A stretch of 25,705 bases of DNA from positions 1 through 25,705 of the IMG/VR virus record IMGVR_UViG_3300009095_001359; one strand, 5' to 3'. Made by a program: the position numbers and the translations under genes. The DNA is from a virus. Its lineage: Duplodnaviria; Caudoviricetes. The notes beneath the pieces were generated by a model. It ran no database searches and was not told where the DNA came from. It saw only the letters and a program-made list of their open reading frames with translations. The first letter of the stretch is position 1; the number at the start of each line of letters is the position of its first letter. Shown one piece after another: positions 104 to 22,328 of this stretch.

Positions 104-514
104 CTACCATGATCGTGTTGATTTAGGCTTATGCACAGGTGATAGCCTATTCTGCCTAATGCTGTTGCATTGCGCATGAACTAGTCTTAAGTTATCAATG
201 CTATGAGTTCCACCATGAGACACAGGAATGATGTGGTCAACACTGGGGCCTAGTGGCAGTCGCCCGCTTATCCCTGTATCCACGTAGCCACCACAGATGG
301 CGCAGTACGGAGGAGATTCACGCAGGACACGTAGGCGGTTAGCCCTATATCCCGTGTCCCTGTATGCCTGGTCTCCGGTAGTCCGCTTCTTGTAGTCCCG
401 TTCGTACGCCTGCGTGCATGTCCGGCATCTCCTGGCACCGTTGCGCCGCCTGATCGTGTTCTCAGGAGTCCAGGGATGTCCTTTACTGCAGACATCAGGG
501 CTAGTGCTGTCCAT
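104..514 (-). CDS. HNH endonuclease with N-terminal CxxGH...CxxC zinc finger (probably terminase/cos-associated)
   Basis: CAICG...SVDHIIPVSHGGTHSIDNLRLVHAQCN is an HNH motif; N-terminal CSKGHPWTPENT...RCRTC. Confidence 0.9.
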   Translation of the reverse strand: MDSTSPDVCSKGHPWTPENTIRRRNGARRCRTCTQAYERDYKKRTTGDQAYRDTGYRANRLRVLRESPPYCAICGGYVDTGISGRLPLGPSVDHIIPVSHGGTHSIDNLRLVHAQCNSIRQNRLSPVHKPKSTRSW

Positions 515-640: not shown

Positions 641-644
641 TTAG

Positions 645-725
645 TACCTGTGGCTGGATTCGAACCAGCACGCGCGAACGCGGGAGGGTTTAAGCCTCCT
701 GTGTCTGCCATTCCACCACACAGGC
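645..725 (-). tRNA. tRNA-Leu(TAA) (reads TTA; bldA-equivalent)
   Basis: Acceptor GCCTGTG/CACAGGT, arm GGAGG-CTTAAAC-CCTCC, long variable arm, T-loop TTCGAAT. Confidence 0.92.
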
Positions 726-736
726 AAGATGAGATC

Positions 737-858
737 GCCCTGCACAGGAGCAACAGCTAGTCAGAGGAGAGAGCAGACTAGGCGCTACGACTGTGCAGGG
801 CCTGCACAGCCAGCGGACCACCGTAGGCGGTCTGTAAGAGCCACACGCGGGCTGTGCA
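737..858 (-). ncRNA. Candidate structured ncRNA (two domains) between tRNA-Thr and tRNA-Leu
   Basis: Helices TGCACAGCC/GGCTGTGCA and GCCCTGCACAG/CTGTGCAGGGC with internal hairpins; G-U pairs form only on the minus strand. Confidence 0.55.
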
Positions 859-869
859 TCATTAAGTTT

Positions 870-943
870 TGGAGCCTCTATCAGGAATCGAACCCGAATC
901 AACTGTTTACAAGACAGCCGCTCTGCCATTGAGCTACAGAGGC
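870..943 (-). tRNA. tRNA-Thr(TGT)
   Basis: Arm GCTGT-CTTGTAA-ACAGT, T-loop TTCGATT, encoded CCA. Confidence 0.92.
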
Positions 944-1018: not shown

Positions 1019-1020
1019 AT

Positions 1021-1130
1021 GCAGTTCACTAACCCGGAACTGCGCAGGCCATTACTTCTATAGCGCCATAGGTTTGCGCTTATGCGATCACCGGCCGGTA
1101 AAGCAGCGCTGAGCGTACTTTTCTCGCATA
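1021..1130 (-). ncRNA. Candidate structured RNA between tRNA-Pro and tRNA-Trp
   Basis: Consecutive helices TATGCGA/TCGCATA, GCGCA/TGCGC, GCAGTTC/GAACTGC; no tRNA cloverleaf. Confidence 0.4.
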
Positions 1131-1516: not shown

Positions 1517-1948
1517 TTACTCGGCCTCTGCAACCACCTTAGTAACAAGCTCGGTAGGCTGGCCTGCATCCACTACTAGATCAACCCGTACAGGCTCTGT
1601 AGCGTCCGCATCAGTGTTGTTCTTATACCAGAGAACCAGAGGAGCAGCAGGACCAAATTCAGCCTCTGTGTAGCTCCCCCAGCTCTGGACTAGCGGGTTG
1701 TTTGTCCCACTGGTATAGCTCAGCTCATTAGGAGATTCAGCATAGGCACCGAACACTTCAACATACTGTGCAGGCTCGCCAACAGAATAGCCTAGGCAGA
1801 TCCTCTGATCCCCAGAAGTTCCTAACGCAGGGGCGAATAGCCTCACCCCGAAGAGTCTGCTAACTCCTGCAATAGCTACTCGCAGGAACTGTCCTGCTGT
1901 GTTTGTTTCTGGGTTAATAGTGACCTGTACGCTAGCGACTGTTGCCAT
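1517..1948 (-). CDS. Hypothetical beta-rich protein inside the tRNA operon
   Basis: 143 aa ORF with strong RBS (CAGAGGAGA) filling the gap between tRNAs. Confidence 0.8.
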   Translation of the reverse strand: MATVASVQVTINPETNTAGQFLRVAIAGVSRLFGVRLFAPALGTSGDQRICLGYSVGEPAQYVEVFGAYAESPNELSYTSGTNNPLVQSWGSYTEAEFGPAAPLVLWYKNNTDADATEPVRVDLVVDAGQPTELVTKVVAEAE

Positions 1949-1973
1949 TGCTGTTTCTCCTCTGTCTAATCAT

Positions 1974-2135: not shown

Positions 2136-2140
2136 AAAAA

Positions 2141-2219
2141 AGACAGCCAACCATTCGACTAGTTGCTAGTCTGAAGCATCGGCGAAAGCCGTTATTCGTC
2201 TGCTCTTCAGAAGCTGTCT
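2141..2219 (-). ncRNA. Candidate three-way-junction RNA between tRNA-Val and tRNA-Ala
   Basis: AGACAGCT/GGCTGTCT closing helix, CTGAAG/CTTCAG with CGGC-TTTC-GCCG tip, GACTAG-CAA-CTAGTC hairpin, then a T-run. Confidence 0.5.
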
Positions 2220-2222
2220 ACG

Positions 2223-2365: not shown

Positions 2366-2533
2366 ATGACTGTCAGTATAGTACTGTATTGTTCTGTATA
2401 GTACTGTTCTGTATTTAGTTAATTGTTTATTAGTCTGTTCTGTGTAGTTCTGTACTGTTGCTGTATAAGTATTTACTGGACTGTATAGTCAGTACTGTAC
2501 TGAGCTGTACTGTTCTTATCCCCTTAAGGGGAT
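2366..2533. repeat. AT-rich low-complexity GTACTG/CTGTA repeat tract; includes likely -10 (TATACT, minus strand, 2375-2380) of the tRNA operon
   Basis: GTATAGTACTG at 2376 and 2396, many CTGTA/CTGTT units; perfect palindrome ATCCCCTTAAGGGGAT at 2518-2533. Confidence 0.55.
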
Positions 2534-2887
2534 CTATCAGCAGGTCAGTGCTGCAGGCTGTTCGCTCCAGGGCTTTACAGCCCTGTACCTCTCAGCCTGT
2601 ATATAGAGCTATTAGTCTGCCGAAGCCAAAGATCTTAAAGAATGTGACTAAGCTCACTAATATAACTGTCAACCTTTGGCAGCCTTCAGACGTTGCAAAC
2701 ACTGCCTGACCTGCGGATATCGACCGAATGGACGAGTTCGGATCGCCCCAAGGGTCCGAATCTCACAGGCTCACCCTATAGGGGTAGCGGGAACGGTGAG
2801 CACAGGGATACGGTTAACACAACGTCAGGTGAGCTAGCTCTCACAAGCCCCTAAAGCAGCAGGTCAGAGCAGCATTGACCCTCTGAT

Positions 2888-2917
2888 TCGACAATCCAGA
2901 ATCTGGAGTGTTAGACT
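2888..2917 (+). promoter_or_regulatory. Promoter P1 with operator in spacer
   Basis: TCGACA-18 bp (ATCCAGAATCTGGAGTGT)-TAGACT. Confidence 0.75.
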
Positions 2918-2947
2918 GCAAGGGCAGCAGGTTCACGCCTGCAGCAC

Positions 2948-2971
2948 GTTGTTACAGAATTAAACAGTGTG
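2948..2971 (+). promoter_or_regulatory. rrn boxA-like antitermination motif, copy 1
   Basis: GTTGTTACAGAATTAAACAGTGTG, 23/24 identical to 7138-7161; preceded by hairpin GCAGG-TTCACG-CCTGC. Confidence 0.55.
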
Positions 2972-2992
2972 TCCGAATAGTGAGAGAACGCA

Positions 2993-3021
2993 TCGACTAT
3001 CCAGAATCTGTGTAGTACACT
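2993..3021 (+). promoter_or_regulatory. Promoter P2 (leaderless repressor mRNA) with degenerate operator
   Basis: TCGACT-17 bp (ATCCAGAATCTGTGTAG)-TACACT; ATG 7 nt after the -10, no SD. Confidence 0.7.
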
Positions 3022-3028
3022 GCGCAGC

Positions 3029-3445
3029 ATGGACCAGCAGACAATAGACCAGATTCTGAAACTCGACAGTGAAGGGCATTCCGTAGCAGACATTGCTAAA
3101 ACAGTAGGTTTGTCTCGCCCGTACGTCAGTACCATTCTCAGTGATAAGGGCAGGGCTAGGCACACACGGGCGGGAATGGAGACTTCATTCGTGCCATTCA
3201 TCCCGCCAAAGGAGCATCGTAAGCAGCACGCTTACATGATGTTTAAGGCAATGGATAAAGACGCTGACGGAATCCCTATCGGGAAGACCACTAGAAAGGA
3301 TATGGAAGCGTTTAAAAAAGGGCTTTCGAAGAAGACATGGGTTTATGATGAGGAACGCGGTTTTTACTTTATTCCGCGTAAACCCGAGCATGGTAAGCGA
3401 CCGTTCATAGGCTTATCCACGCGCCAATTACATACACTCATCTAA
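3029..3445 (+). CDS. Immunity repressor (L5 gp71-like, N-terminal HTH)
   Basis: HTH GHSVADIAKTVGLSRPYVSTIL; C-terminal WVYDEERGFYFIPR resembles the cluster A repressor; upstream of the Cas4-like nuclease. Confidence 0.75.
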   Translation: MDQQTIDQILKLDSEGHSVADIAKTVGLSRPYVSTILSDKGRARHTRAGMETSFVPFIPPKEHRKQHAYMMFKAMDKDADGIPIGKTTRKDMEAFKKGLSKKTWVYDEERGFYFIPRKPEHGKRPFIGLSTRQLHTLI

Positions 3446-4576: not shown

Positions 4577-4605
4577 TCAACACTCCAGAATCTGTAGTGT
4601 AGTGT
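4577..4605 (+). promoter_or_regulatory. Promoter P3 with operator
   Basis: TCAACA-17 bp-TAGTGT; palindrome ACACTCCAGA-A-TCTGTAGTGT. Confidence 0.65.
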
Positions 4606-4808: not shown

Positions 4809-4815
4809 ATGGGTA

Positions 4816-4865
4816 GCCCTTGCGGAGTCTTCAGGGCTCGTAGGTTCGCAACCTGGCAAGGGCAC
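4816..4865 (+). other. Mini tRNA-like element 1
   Basis: GCCCTTGC/GCAAGGGC+AC closing stem, one hairpin, T-arm-like TAGG-TTCGCAA-CCTG. Confidence 0.6.
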
Positions 4866-4918
4866 AAGACAGAGAACACAGAGAAAGTGTCAGAAGTCAA
4901 AATCAGGAAGGAATTCTA

Positions 4919-5247: not shown

Positions 5248-5277
5248 TTAACAATCCAGATTCCGGAGTGTTAGGCT
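5248..5277 (+). promoter_or_regulatory. Promoter P4 with operator
   Basis: TTAACA-18 bp (ATCCAGATTCCGGAGTGT)-TAGGCT. Confidence 0.7.
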
Positions 5278-5700: not shown

Positions 5701-5727
5701 AGTAGGACTAGAACAGAGGAGAAAGAA

Positions 5728-7061: not shown

Positions 7062-7091
7062 TAGACAATCCAGAATCTGGAGTGTTAAGCT
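7062..7091 (+). promoter_or_regulatory. Promoter P5 with operator
   Basis: TAGACA-18 bp (ATCCAGAATCTGGAGTGT)-TAAGCT. Confidence 0.8.
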
Positions 7092-7939: not shown

Positions 7940-8098
7940 ATGAAAAAGATCACGGCGCTTCTGACGGTTGAGGTTAGCGAAAAGACGCTAGCTGAGTTTG
8001 GGTACGCGCTTGAGGAATTCGCGGCGATGGTTCGGGCGCGTGCTGAATCGGACATGCACGAATTCCTCAACGGACACGCCAAGGTCAAAGTCAAGTAA
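7940..8098 (+). CDS. Hypothetical protein (52 aa, not in ORF track)
   Basis: MKKITALLTVEVSEK...KVK*, RBS AAAGGGG. Confidence 0.7.
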   Translation: MKKITALLTVEVSEKTLAEFGYALEEFAAMVRARAESDMHEFLNGHAKVKVK

Positions 8099-8105
8099 AA
8101 CAACC

Positions 8106-8151
8106 GCCTAGGGTGGTCTCATTCAGGGTTCGATTCCCTGGCTAGGCACTC
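8106..8151 (+). other. Mini tRNA-like element 4
   Basis: GCCTAG/CTAGGC+ACTC with canonical T-arm CAGGG-TTCGATT-CCCTG. Confidence 0.65.
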
Positions 8152-8173
8152 GGACAAGAGAAAGGAAATTGCA

Positions 8174-8814: not shown

Positions 8815-8835
8815 ACAATTCAGAGGAGAAACACA

Positions 8836-9616: not shown

Positions 9617-9689
9617 GCCTCGCTAGCTCAATGGATAGAGCGGCAGATTCCTAATCTGAAGGTTCTAGGTTCGAATCCTAGGTGAGGCA
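9617..9689 (+). tRNA. tRNA-Arg(CCT)
   Basis: Acceptor GCCTCGC/GTGAGGC, loop TTCCTAA, T-arm CTAGG-TTCGAAT-CCTAG. Confidence 0.9.
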
Positions 9690-9731
9690 CTAACAACTGA
9701 ATAACACAGCAACAGAGGAGAGGAAAAAGGA

Positions 9732-10064: not shown

Positions 10065-10079
10065 CAGAGGAGAACAGTA

Positions 10080-12315: not shown

Positions 12316-12759
12316 GTGACACGTAAGCCTTGCCCAGATTGCAAGGCTGAGGGAAAAACCAAATACGCTAGTTGTAAGTGTCAGCGGCCTCATCCTTGGG
12401 GCCGCTGTCATACTCACCACAAGAAGGCTGTTAAAACAGCCTCAGACGCTCGCCATGACTCGTATGTCTGTGACCTGTACGGGTTACTGCCTGGCGAGTA
12501 TCAGAGGCTCTATGAGGCCCAGGGTGGCCGCTGTGCTGTCTGCCAGAGAGCCCGAGGCATCAGACGCAGGCTAGCAGTAGATCACGACCACGCGACAGGA
12601 CTTGTCCGTGGTCTTTTGTGTTCTACCTGCAACAAAATGCTAGGACACTCTAGGGACAGTCCTAGCTTTTTTCAGCGCGCTATTCAGTATTTGGTTAGTC
12701 CTCCAGCTCAGCAACTATTGGGCGAAAGAATTCATAAAGACAACAGAGGAGAGAAGTAA
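12316..12759 (+). CDS. Endonuclease VII (Holliday junction resolvase-like)
   Basis: QGGRCAVC...LAVDHDHATGLVRGLLCSTCN. Confidence 0.92.
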   Translation: MTRKPCPDCKAEGKTKYASCKCQRPHPWGRCHTHHKKAVKTASDARHDSYVCDLYGLLPGEYQRLYEAQGGRCAVCQRARGIRRRLAVDHDHATGLVRGLLCSTCNKMLGHSRDSPSFFQRAIQYLVSPPAQQLLGERIHKDNRGEK

Positions 12760-21410: not shown

Positions 21411-21566
21411 ATGGAATGCAGTATTCATGATGCGGAGCTAGAGCAGGTCTACCCAGAGGACACAGAGCTGACTATGTGCGAGGACTGTGCATCTGGACTG
21501 TCTGGGCAGTCTGTGGAGATGGTCAGGCTCTATGAAGCGGCTAGACAATACAGAGGAGATAACTAG
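21411..21566 (+). CDS. Small CxxH/CxxC protein
   Basis: ATG after GAGGGA. Confidence 0.55.
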   Translation: MECSIHDAELEQVYPEDTELTMCEDCASGLSGQSVEMVRLYEAARQYRGDN

Positions 21567-21567
21567 G

Positions 21568-21963
21568 TTGATTCCTATCTATTCGACTAATAACGCTGCT
21601 GCAGCTGACCTGTACGCGACTAAGAGTGTCTGGATCGACTCAGGCGATTACGCCTCTGTACCTACAGGGGTTACAGGAGAGGAGCTGTTCGCGGGTCTCG
21701 ATAGCCATCACTGTGCTTTGATCTGCCCTAGGTCAGGGCTGGCTCTGAAGCAGGGCATTACTGTACTGAACTCCCCCGGGATCATTGATTTTGACTATAA
21801 GGGTGAGGTCGAGGTCGTCCTGATTAACCACAGCAGGAGGGAGCGGATCATTCAGGCTGGCTCCCGTATCGCGCAGGTTCTGCTCGTGAAGCGAGCCTGG
21901 AACTTCGATTTTGAGATTGCAGACACTGACCGCACAGGCGGTTTTGGAAGCACAGGGGAATAA
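21568..21963 (+). CDS. dut: dUTPase (start TTG 21568, alternatively ATG 21532)
   Basis: PRSGLA, GIIDFDYKGE, RIAQ, RTGGFGSTG. Confidence 0.93.
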   Translation: MIPIYSTNNAAAADLYATKSVWIDSGDYASVPTGVTGEELFAGLDSHHCALICPRSGLALKQGITVLNSPGIIDFDYKGEVEVVLINHSRRERIIQAGSRIAQVLLVKRAWNFDFEIADTDRTGGFGSTGE

Positions 21964-21965
21964 CA

Positions 21966-22328
21966 TTGTACGAATACACTTATAGTACTAAAGCCAGCAT
22001 TAATGGCAGGATCATTCCAACTGAACTTATCTACTCTGAAGAAGACCCGTTCGCTGTTCAATTCAAATTCTATAGCGACGGTAAAACCACTACCTGGTAT
22101 TTCTCCTATGAGCTGTTTATCAAGGGCATTACGTCCCGCCGCTGGGTAGGACTCGGAGACATCCAGGTCAAGAAAGCGAAGCATTCGATTATGCTTAAGC
22201 TTCATGGACAGGACCACAGTGCAACTGTAGGGCTGATCCCTGAAGACGTTGACGCATTCCTTAATAGTTTCGATCCGGTTGAGCTGGATTTCGAAGAGGA
22301 ACTGGAAGACCTTATTAAGGGTAACTAA
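21966..22328 (+). CDS. SsgA-family sporulation/cell division protein
   Basis: L.Y...DPFAV.F.F.....W.FS.EL...G......GLGDI is the SALP signature. Confidence 0.82.
   Translation: MYEYTYSTKASINGRIIPTELIYSEEDPFAVQFKFYSDGKTTTWYFSYELFIKGITSRRWVGLGDIQVKKAKHSIMLKLHGQDHSATVGLIPEDVDAFLNSFDPVELDFEEELEDLIKGN

Follow-up and report, generated by a model that had tools for sequence, protein, structure and literature searches.

A conserved hairpin with an anti-Shine-Dalgarno loop in the tRNA cluster of an L5-like actinophage, predicted to act as a trans-acting small RNA

A long hairpin lies between two tRNA genes in a 25,705-nucleotide stretch of viral DNA (IMG/VR record IMGVR_UViG_3300009095_001359, positions 1 to 25,705; hereafter the window), and its loop is complementary to the ribosome binding site (RBS) that the same phage uses most often. 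Why should a phage carry an inverted copy of its own RBS in a hairpin among tRNA genes? The locus bears on two open questions: how temperate actinophages silence their early genes, and why some of them repeat one extended RBS before their non-structural genes. A late RNA antisense to the common RBS would be a concrete mechanism, and one that is directly testable in a cultured phage.

The phage to which the window belongs is a temperate, L5-like actinophage. From position 3029, the plus strand carries a repressor-like gene followed by genes for Cas4, DnaB, primase, ThyX and ribonucleotide reductase. DNA polymerase I and an SsgA-family protein (21966-22328; PF04686, E 1e-13) are also encoded on this strand, the latter pointing to a filamentous actinomycete host. 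The minus strand holds the tRNA cluster, which is closed by an HNH endonuclease gene (Table 1); the structural genes are outside the contig. The closest named relative of this phage is a Glycomyces mayteni prophage (L140; Cas4 identity 58%). In the gene order of this prophage and of genome G004, the same tRNA-HNH block runs directly into the terminase genes, from which we infer that the tRNA strand is the start of the late operon. A search of the window for a sigma-70-type late promoter found none. A near-palindromic 24-nt repeat occurs in five copies ahead of early transcription units (2888-2911, 2993-3016, 4577-4600, 5248-5271 and 7062-7085) and is likely the operator of the repressor-like gene at 3029; L5 stoperators, in contrast, are not symmetric. 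Two tRNA-like genes of the minus strand were missed by ARAGORN, Ile(GAU) at 1216-1274 (Rfam, 32 bits) and Ser(GCU) at about 1975-2062 (by eye only). The early arm contains a solitary tRNA-Arg(CCU) (9617-9690, plus) on the strand opposite to the cluster, as well as small folds resembling an acceptor plus T arm with a GGTTCG loop, located between early genes at 4810-4868 (plus; z -3.1) and 8104-8152 (plus; z -1.1).

Table 1. Features of the window that bear on the hairpin
Feature	Position	Strand	Remarks
HNH endonuclease gene, closing the tRNA cluster	104..514	minus	PF01844
tRNA cluster	565-2366	minus	
tRNA-Leu(UAA), 3' neighbour of the hairpin	644..725	minus	same gene 3' in L061 and L001
Spacer between tRNA-Thr and tRNA-Leu(UAA), 144 nt; the hairpin is its 3' half	726..869	minus	two-domain fold, z -6.6
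Rod of 23 bp: 11-bp basal stem, 2x2 pyrimidine internal loop, 6-bp G-U-rich helix, 6-bp apical helix	737..801	minus	
Open 13-nt C/U loop with anti-Shine-Dalgarno core CUCCU	763..775	minus	unpaired probability 0.91-1.0 with flanking tRNAs included
Adjoining domain, three-way junction, sequence-variable	802..858	minus	z -3.6; upstream hairpins also in L061, L140 and L064
tRNA-Thr(UGU), 5' neighbour of the hairpin	870..943	minus	ARAGORN and Rfam
143-aa ORF of no known family, in the transcript of the hairpin	1517..1964, including RBS 1956-1964	minus	RBS is a 9-nt loop match
Divergence region between late tRNA operon (minus) and early arm (plus)	2367..3028		ORF layout; two operator-like palindromes (repeat family D2)
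CAGAGGAGA RBS, early ORF 5728	5714..5722	plus	
CAGAGGAGA RBS, early ORF 8836	8821..8829	plus	10-nt match counting stem bases
CAGAGGAGA RBS, early ORF 9732	9713..9721	plus	10-nt match
CAGAGGAGA RBS, early ORF 10080	10065..10073	plus	
CAGAGGAGA RBS, early ORF 12759	12744..12752	plus	longest match, 11 nt
CAGAGGAGA RBS, dUTPase gene with TTG start at 21568	21551..21559	plus	

A preliminary description, made from the sequence of the window, had recorded an irregular hairpin on the tRNA strand with helices of 11, 5 and 6 bp. The outer and apical helices are as described, but the middle one has 6 bp, three of them G-U. The minus-strand fold of 737-801 has an energy of -37.1 kcal/mol, an ensemble frequency of 0.76 and a z of -6.3, and none of 200 shuffled sequences was as stable. 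The plus-strand fold is weaker (-30.9 kcal/mol), and the tRNA strand is favoured because of the G-U pairs in the hairpin. As had been stated, the loop together with its closing G is the reverse complement of CAGAGGAGA. The window contains 85 CTCCT sites and at just one of them a hairpin with such a loop; any given loop would contain the 9-mer complement by chance with a probability of about 3e-5, and 13 long hairpins are present by our own criteria. No intrinsic terminator was called at 737-801, and two tRNAs lie downstream. ARAGORN and Rfam revealed no cloverleaf, T-loop or tRNA remnant in 726-869, and no covariance model of Rfam 15 (6C, c4, RsaE, ribozymes, SRP and others) matched the same segment at E<=1. 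Likenesses by eye to SRP RNA, to the hammerhead and to an HDV-like ribozyme were rejected, as they had no Rfam match. A reading on the plus strand, in which the hairpin would conceal an RBS, was likewise rejected, as a start codon follows the purine strand in none of four homologues.

The window holds 10 copies of CAGAGGAGA; 100 shuffled sequences averaged 0.61 copies and never had more than 4. Seven had been listed as RBSs, and each does stand directly ahead of a start codon, six at early genes and one (1956-1964) at a gene of the late strand; the remaining copies are in the hairpin (762), antisense to the tRNA-Ile-like gene (1247) and within the primase coding sequence (13278). The loop is complementary to the commonest RBS of the phage, over at least 7 nt at 13 of the 42 called early genes and over at least 8 nt at 8 of them. 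A homologue of the 143-aa protein encoded by the late-strand gene is present in the related phage L061 (39% identical), and its RBS there fits the loop of L061 over 7 nt. For the window protein (1517-1948, minus), the Atlas gives look-alike clusters from viruses and weak matches to jelly-roll-like folds, and it is possibly a virion accessory protein; single-sequence locus searches with it and with Cas4 came back empty.

Relatives of the hairpin were sought in 218 Cas4-linked loci. In L061, blastn placed it directly 5' of tRNA-Leu(UAA) (76%, E 8e-25). A one-sequence covariance model, run against six sources, scored L061 at 50.7, L001 at 26.2, L064 at 24.1 and the prophage at 23.7 bits, the best unrelated hit reaching 18.5. 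All four hits are on the late strand, between a tRNA and an HNH-like gene. L061 and L064 share the assembly prefix of the window, yet they are separate phages, with Cas4 at 58% and 41%. None of the 11 basal pairs is broken in the window, L061, L064 or L001 (44/44 cells), a pairing that is partly built in for L064 and L001, whose borders were set by the structure model; the prophage retains 10 of 11 in the register used. Among the four homologues, 6 of the 11 basal positions are changed on both sides, and in L061, found by sequence alone, three pairs are compensatory and none is disrupted. A script counted the pairs position by position, with no family model, because MAFFT loop alignments were out of register.

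The loop reads CUCUCUCCU in L061, UUCCUCCUUUC in L064 and UUUCCUCCUUUC in the prophage, where 9 nt are identical to the 3' tail of the host 16S rRNA. In the more distant L019, a rod with the loop ACCUCCUUCC stands just before the HNH gene; it was missed by the covariance model and comes from a fold scan that is not fully specific, with matches elsewhere in 4 of 22 further loci. L001 keeps the 11-bp basal stem and the 2x2 pyrimidine loop without the anti-Shine-Dalgarno loop, and L018 has the whole rod of L019 without CUCCU. Conservation of the loop in relatives, which the preliminary description had named as one test of its reading, therefore holds for the syntenic L061, L064 and prophage hairpins and for L019, and fails in L001 and L018; what is conserved is the CUCCU core rather than the full complement of CAGAGGAGA, the flanks being phage-specific. 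The 3' side of the hairpin is without a tRNA in the prophage, L064 and L019, and in L064 a U run follows. A scan for the motif core found such hairpins at 1 of 101 CTCCT sites in the prophage, 2 of 159 in G005 and 1 of 105 in G006, with one per genome on the late strand in the prophage and G006; there was none in G004 (0/42 sites) or the Rhodococcus phage WC1 (0/116), nor any CUCCU-loop hairpin in the first 7 kb of L5 and D29. When cultured phages were searched at the nucleotide level, no homologue of the hairpin emerged, and an Rfam scan of nine related loci returned tRNAs only. We conclude that the hairpin is a real, conserved and uncatalogued phage RNA element. Two further segments were observed in these loci. 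The prophage (7960-8070, minus) and L064 (390-470, minus) have in common an element 3' of the hairpin and ahead of the HNH gene, in which GGCC-rich inverted repeats precede runs of TATATA; L018 (6390-6480, minus) and L019 (6155-6240, minus) share a conserved stretch that looks structured, has no Rfam match and lies after the long rod and before the HNH gene.

Contig-level runs, probably of DNA, were used as strain variants only. In X3 the hairpin has a single change, at 783, which turns a G-U pair into A-U, and two more lie just outside, at 735 and 736. The adjoining domain (802-849) has 22 substitutions and two indels in X3 and by eye still contains stems; no change is listed at 850-1140. In X2, 737-801 is unchanged among seven listed of its eight differences, and 948-1273 is missing; the X7 piece (737-880) is identical to the window, and for X4 three of six differences are listed. 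The low strain divergence of the hairpin proves little by itself, since 850-1140 is likewise unchanged in X3. The two tRNA-Glu genes are missing from both X2 and X3; the tRNA modules absent in these strains are 948-1273 and 1343-1500. The array thus gains and loses tRNAs blockwise, and the hairpin survives while surrounding tRNAs vanish. Elsewhere in the cluster, the ORF-free spacer 2136-2221 (minus) has a modest fold (z -2.2), and the ORF-free spacer 1019-1130 (minus) has none (z 0.1) yet no listed change in X3.

Similar hairpins were then looked for across IMG/VR. The exact loop pattern gave no match, and a pattern of the window type gave two loci, both rejected as plain RBSs on the opposite strand. 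The loop type of the prophage, with four forced pairs, gave 23 loci in three lineages, in all of which the stems exceed the forced pairs. In a low-GC lineage (18 loci, two of them examined), the hairpin is on the terminase strand, between divergent small genes and the terminase operon; in L246 it is directly ahead of terL, and in the third lineage it is among replication genes. With two forced pairs the pattern occurs at at least 120 loci, of which 118, in 50 families, were analysed. Among the matches listed, an open loop within at least 12 pairs is found in 31 of 50 families versus 2 of 25 for one shuffled control loop (p 5.5e-6), and contiguous stems in 16 of 50 versus 1 of 25 (p 0.007). Long flanks were available for 21 of the 31 families, and 60 of 109 flanking ORFs among the matches listed were annotated. 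In six of these listed families (L277, L298, L312, L326, L318 and L293), terminase, portal or head-tail genes lie downstream of the hairpin and on its strand; one is before a methylase gene, three are beside replication genes, three are plain opposite-strand RBSs and the rest are unannotated. No strand preference was seen in the stem families (9/16, again among the matches listed). When 45 pattern loci were compared with Rfam, no gathering-level match other than tRNA was obtained; two were sub-threshold, one of them to anti-hemB (E 0.023, L360). The enrichment across viral contigs suggests an uncatalogued, widespread phage RNA class, for which convergence with the window hairpin is as likely as homology.

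Does each loop fit the RBSs of its own phage? Matches of at least 7 nt were counted for the loops of the window, the prophage, L019 and the cultured mycobacteriophage Anaya, with early-gene starts called by script except in Anaya. In that order, the loops match 13, 3, 1 and 3 early genes of the window (n=42), 4, 6, 7 and 1 of the prophage (n=47), 2, 1, 2 and 2 of G005 (n=47), 1, 8, 1 and 1 of G006 (n=29), 1 each of L064 (n=12), and 0, 0, 0 and 13 of Anaya (n=50). Of 120 assignments of loops to phages, those that do at least as well as the true one, itself included, number 5, 2 and 1 at 6, 7 and 8 nt. However, the match was itself the reason for choosing the window and Anaya, and without them the figures are 33, 15 and 3 of 81, so that independent support for loop variants matching the early RBS style of their own phage is weak. 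Of the 12 early RBSs of L064, 7 fit the loop of the window at 6 nt, more than the 2 that fit the loop of L064 itself. A preference for early over late genes is not significant in any phage (p 0.05-0.68); it is greatest in the prophage (14/47 versus 2/22, p 0.051) and absent in G005. In the right arm of WC1 (L223), AGGAGAG-type RBSs are present at 7 of 38 early and 0 of 22 late genes, and no anti-Shine-Dalgarno hairpin was found there. Anaya has a single inverted copy of its extended RBS motif (SAS), at 59,870, and this copy is in a hairpin loop about 600 bases before an HNH gene. Such a hairpin occurs at 1 of 35 sites in the right 31 kb of Anaya; its fold is weak alone (z -1.6), and 13 of 50 early genes match the loop over at least 8 nt.

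With structure, strand, position, compensatory conservation and complementarity as described, we lean, somewhat beyond an even chance, to the reading that the hairpin is a processed late RNA that would occlude Shine-Dalgarno sites in trans and so lower the translation of early mRNAs and of matching host mRNAs. The hairpin would be transcribed together with the tRNAs on the late strand. RNase P cleavage and tRNA 3'-end maturation are established tRNA biology, and acting at tRNA-Leu and tRNA-Thr, respectively, they could set free an RNA no longer than about 145 nt (726-869). Such release is plausible in the window and L061 only, because the prophage, L064 and L019 have no tRNA 3' of the hairpin. 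The 23-bp rod may confer stability on the RNA, and the open C/U seed of 9-13 nt would pair with Shine-Dalgarno sites in trans, in competition with the 30S subunit. Early mRNAs, and host mRNAs with a matching site, would be repressed once late transcription begins; the late position and orientation are consistent with such a shut-down of early genes. As for a trans-acting RBS-occluding sRNA, the class we predict, the hairpin has an accessible seed complementary to the RBS, and conservation of seed and structure with covariation is apparent in the three syntenic homologues and L019, with loss in L001 and L018. Several observations count against action in trans: a full site is present on the 143-aa late gene of the same transcript, L001 and L018 are without the CUCCU loop, WC1 and G004 have no hairpin that our scans could find, and 8-11 nt make for a short pairing when the loop is constrained. 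We know of no chaperone for pairing by the hairpin RNA. More tentatively, many unrelated phages may make a late-operon RNA that mimics the anti-Shine-Dalgarno tail of 16S rRNA and is tuned to their own early RBS style, a generalization that we think has appreciably less than an even chance. If true, it would amount to a general RNA switch by which ribosomes leave early and host mRNAs for late ones, and it would account both for the extended RBS motifs (SAS) that actinophages repeat and for the single copy that is inverted.

The hairpin could instead be a cis element of the late transcript, a rod for processing, stabilization or termination (for example, a substrate of the RNase III type) whose loop, where there is one, would bind an RBS on its own transcript, for instance the one of the 143-aa gene. 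About two helical turns is a suitable length for an RNase III substrate, and the rod is of about this length. L001, with its basal stem kept, and L018, with its whole rod kept, both without the anti-Shine-Dalgarno loop, favour such a role, as do the U run after the L064 hairpin and the joint presence, in the window and L061, of the CUCUCUCCU loop type and a 143-aa gene whose RBS matches the loop. However, the loop is kept in the prophage and L064, where the cluster has no comparable ORF, none of 22 late genes of the prophage has a 7-nt match, and processing enzymes would have no need of an anti-Shine-Dalgarno loop of 9-12 nt; we regard action in cis as rather unlikely. Chance or a relic, that is, an inverted copy of a common RBS caught in a neutral hairpin, would draw on the frequency of RBS motifs and on the indecisive strain conservation (850-1140 is also without a listed X3 change). 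It is highly improbable in view of the rarity of the 9-mer in a loop (about 3e-5 per hairpin, with 13 long hairpins), the compensatory changes, the conserved position, the enrichment over the control loop and the purine strand, which has no start codon after it in four of four homologues.

Two other explanations look to the host. Phage tRNAs are thought to offset anticodon nucleases, and the hairpin, located among tRNA genes, could be a decoy of the 16S rRNA 3' tail that absorbs toxins or defence nucleases of the host whose cleavage sites are in or close to the anti-Shine-Dalgarno sequence. The loops of the prophage and L064, and the commonest IMG/VR loop among the matches listed, do copy the actinobacterial 16S tail, and in mycobacteria MazF-mt3 (at UCCUU) and RelE1 are described, in the available text of the reports, as cleaving the 16S anti-Shine-Dalgarno region (PMC5408214, PMC12620021). 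RelE1, however, is reported to act on 30S and 70S particles; the loops of the window, L061 and Anaya diverge from the 16S tail and lack UCCUU, those of the window and Anaya towards the RBS of their own phage, and a decoy is in our judgement improbable. A general damper of translation, directed mainly at host mRNAs with the match to phage RBSs as a by-product, would be in keeping with the pairing of any CUCCU loop with typical Shine-Dalgarno sites, and a loop that copies the 16S tail exactly would find many partners among host mRNAs; other non-coding RNAs of cluster A phages are toxic to the host, according to the available text of PMC5712189. Yet a small host proxy of 23 Glycomyces genes has 2 matches to the loop of the window over 7 nt and 0 over 8, whereas 13 and 8 of the 42 early phage genes match at these lengths, and host shut-off as the main role is quite improbable.

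How does the proposed occluding RNA compare with systems already known? Our literature search, to which most subscription papers were closed, found no description of a late-operon anti-Shine-Dalgarno RNA in a phage. The available text on L5, D29, Kampy and WC1 reports abundant non-coding RNAs at the genome ends and, where the late arm of Kampy and of WC1 begins, a non-coding region with high expression (PMC5712189, PMC4626039, PMC10986025). The architecture of these phages is related to that of the window, but no CUCCU-loop hairpin was found in WC1 or in the left 7 kb of L5 and D29. The c4 antisense RNA of P1 and P7 is, as far as the available text goes, a phage RNA that likewise blocks translation near an RBS, probably through its loops, but it acts on the antirepressor mRNA by specific sequence, whereas the seed here is a Shine-Dalgarno complement with many potential targets (PMC12197685). 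The hairpin has no match to c4 in Rfam. RsaE/RoxS, RNAIII and the actinobacterial 6C RNA also use unpaired, C-rich seeds to bind RBS regions rich in G; these RNAs are host-encoded, and differ in motif and fold, with no Rfam match to the hairpin.

In cluster K mycobacteriophages, SAS is a phage-specific extended RBS before non-structural genes, with a single inverted copy; the available text leaves open whether RNA or protein binds it, and describes no hairpin at the inverted copy (PMC3203893). The window resembles this system in repeating an extended RBS with one copy in the opposite orientation, and in Anaya that copy is in a hairpin loop before the HNH gene; the motif of the window differs, and the likeness is one of arrangement. 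The cuckoo and alpha-r14 sRNAs of alphaproteobacterial chromosomes have two to four short hairpins, each with CCUCCUCCC, and the available text proposes occlusion of RBSs for them (PMC4615179). As in these RNAs, an anti-Shine-Dalgarno motif is displayed in a hairpin loop whose stem has undergone many compensatory changes. Here, however, there is one long rod in a phage late operon, with a phage-specific loop and no Rfam match; CCUCCUCCC is absent, the loops being CUCUCUCCUCU, UUUCCUCCUUUC and ACCUCCUUCC, and a single motif-bearing hairpin adjoins a domain without CUCCU. Although it departs from the cuckoo and alpha-r14 RNAs and from other C-rich-loop sRNAs in motif and architecture, the hairpin is predicted, by analogy, to act as they do.
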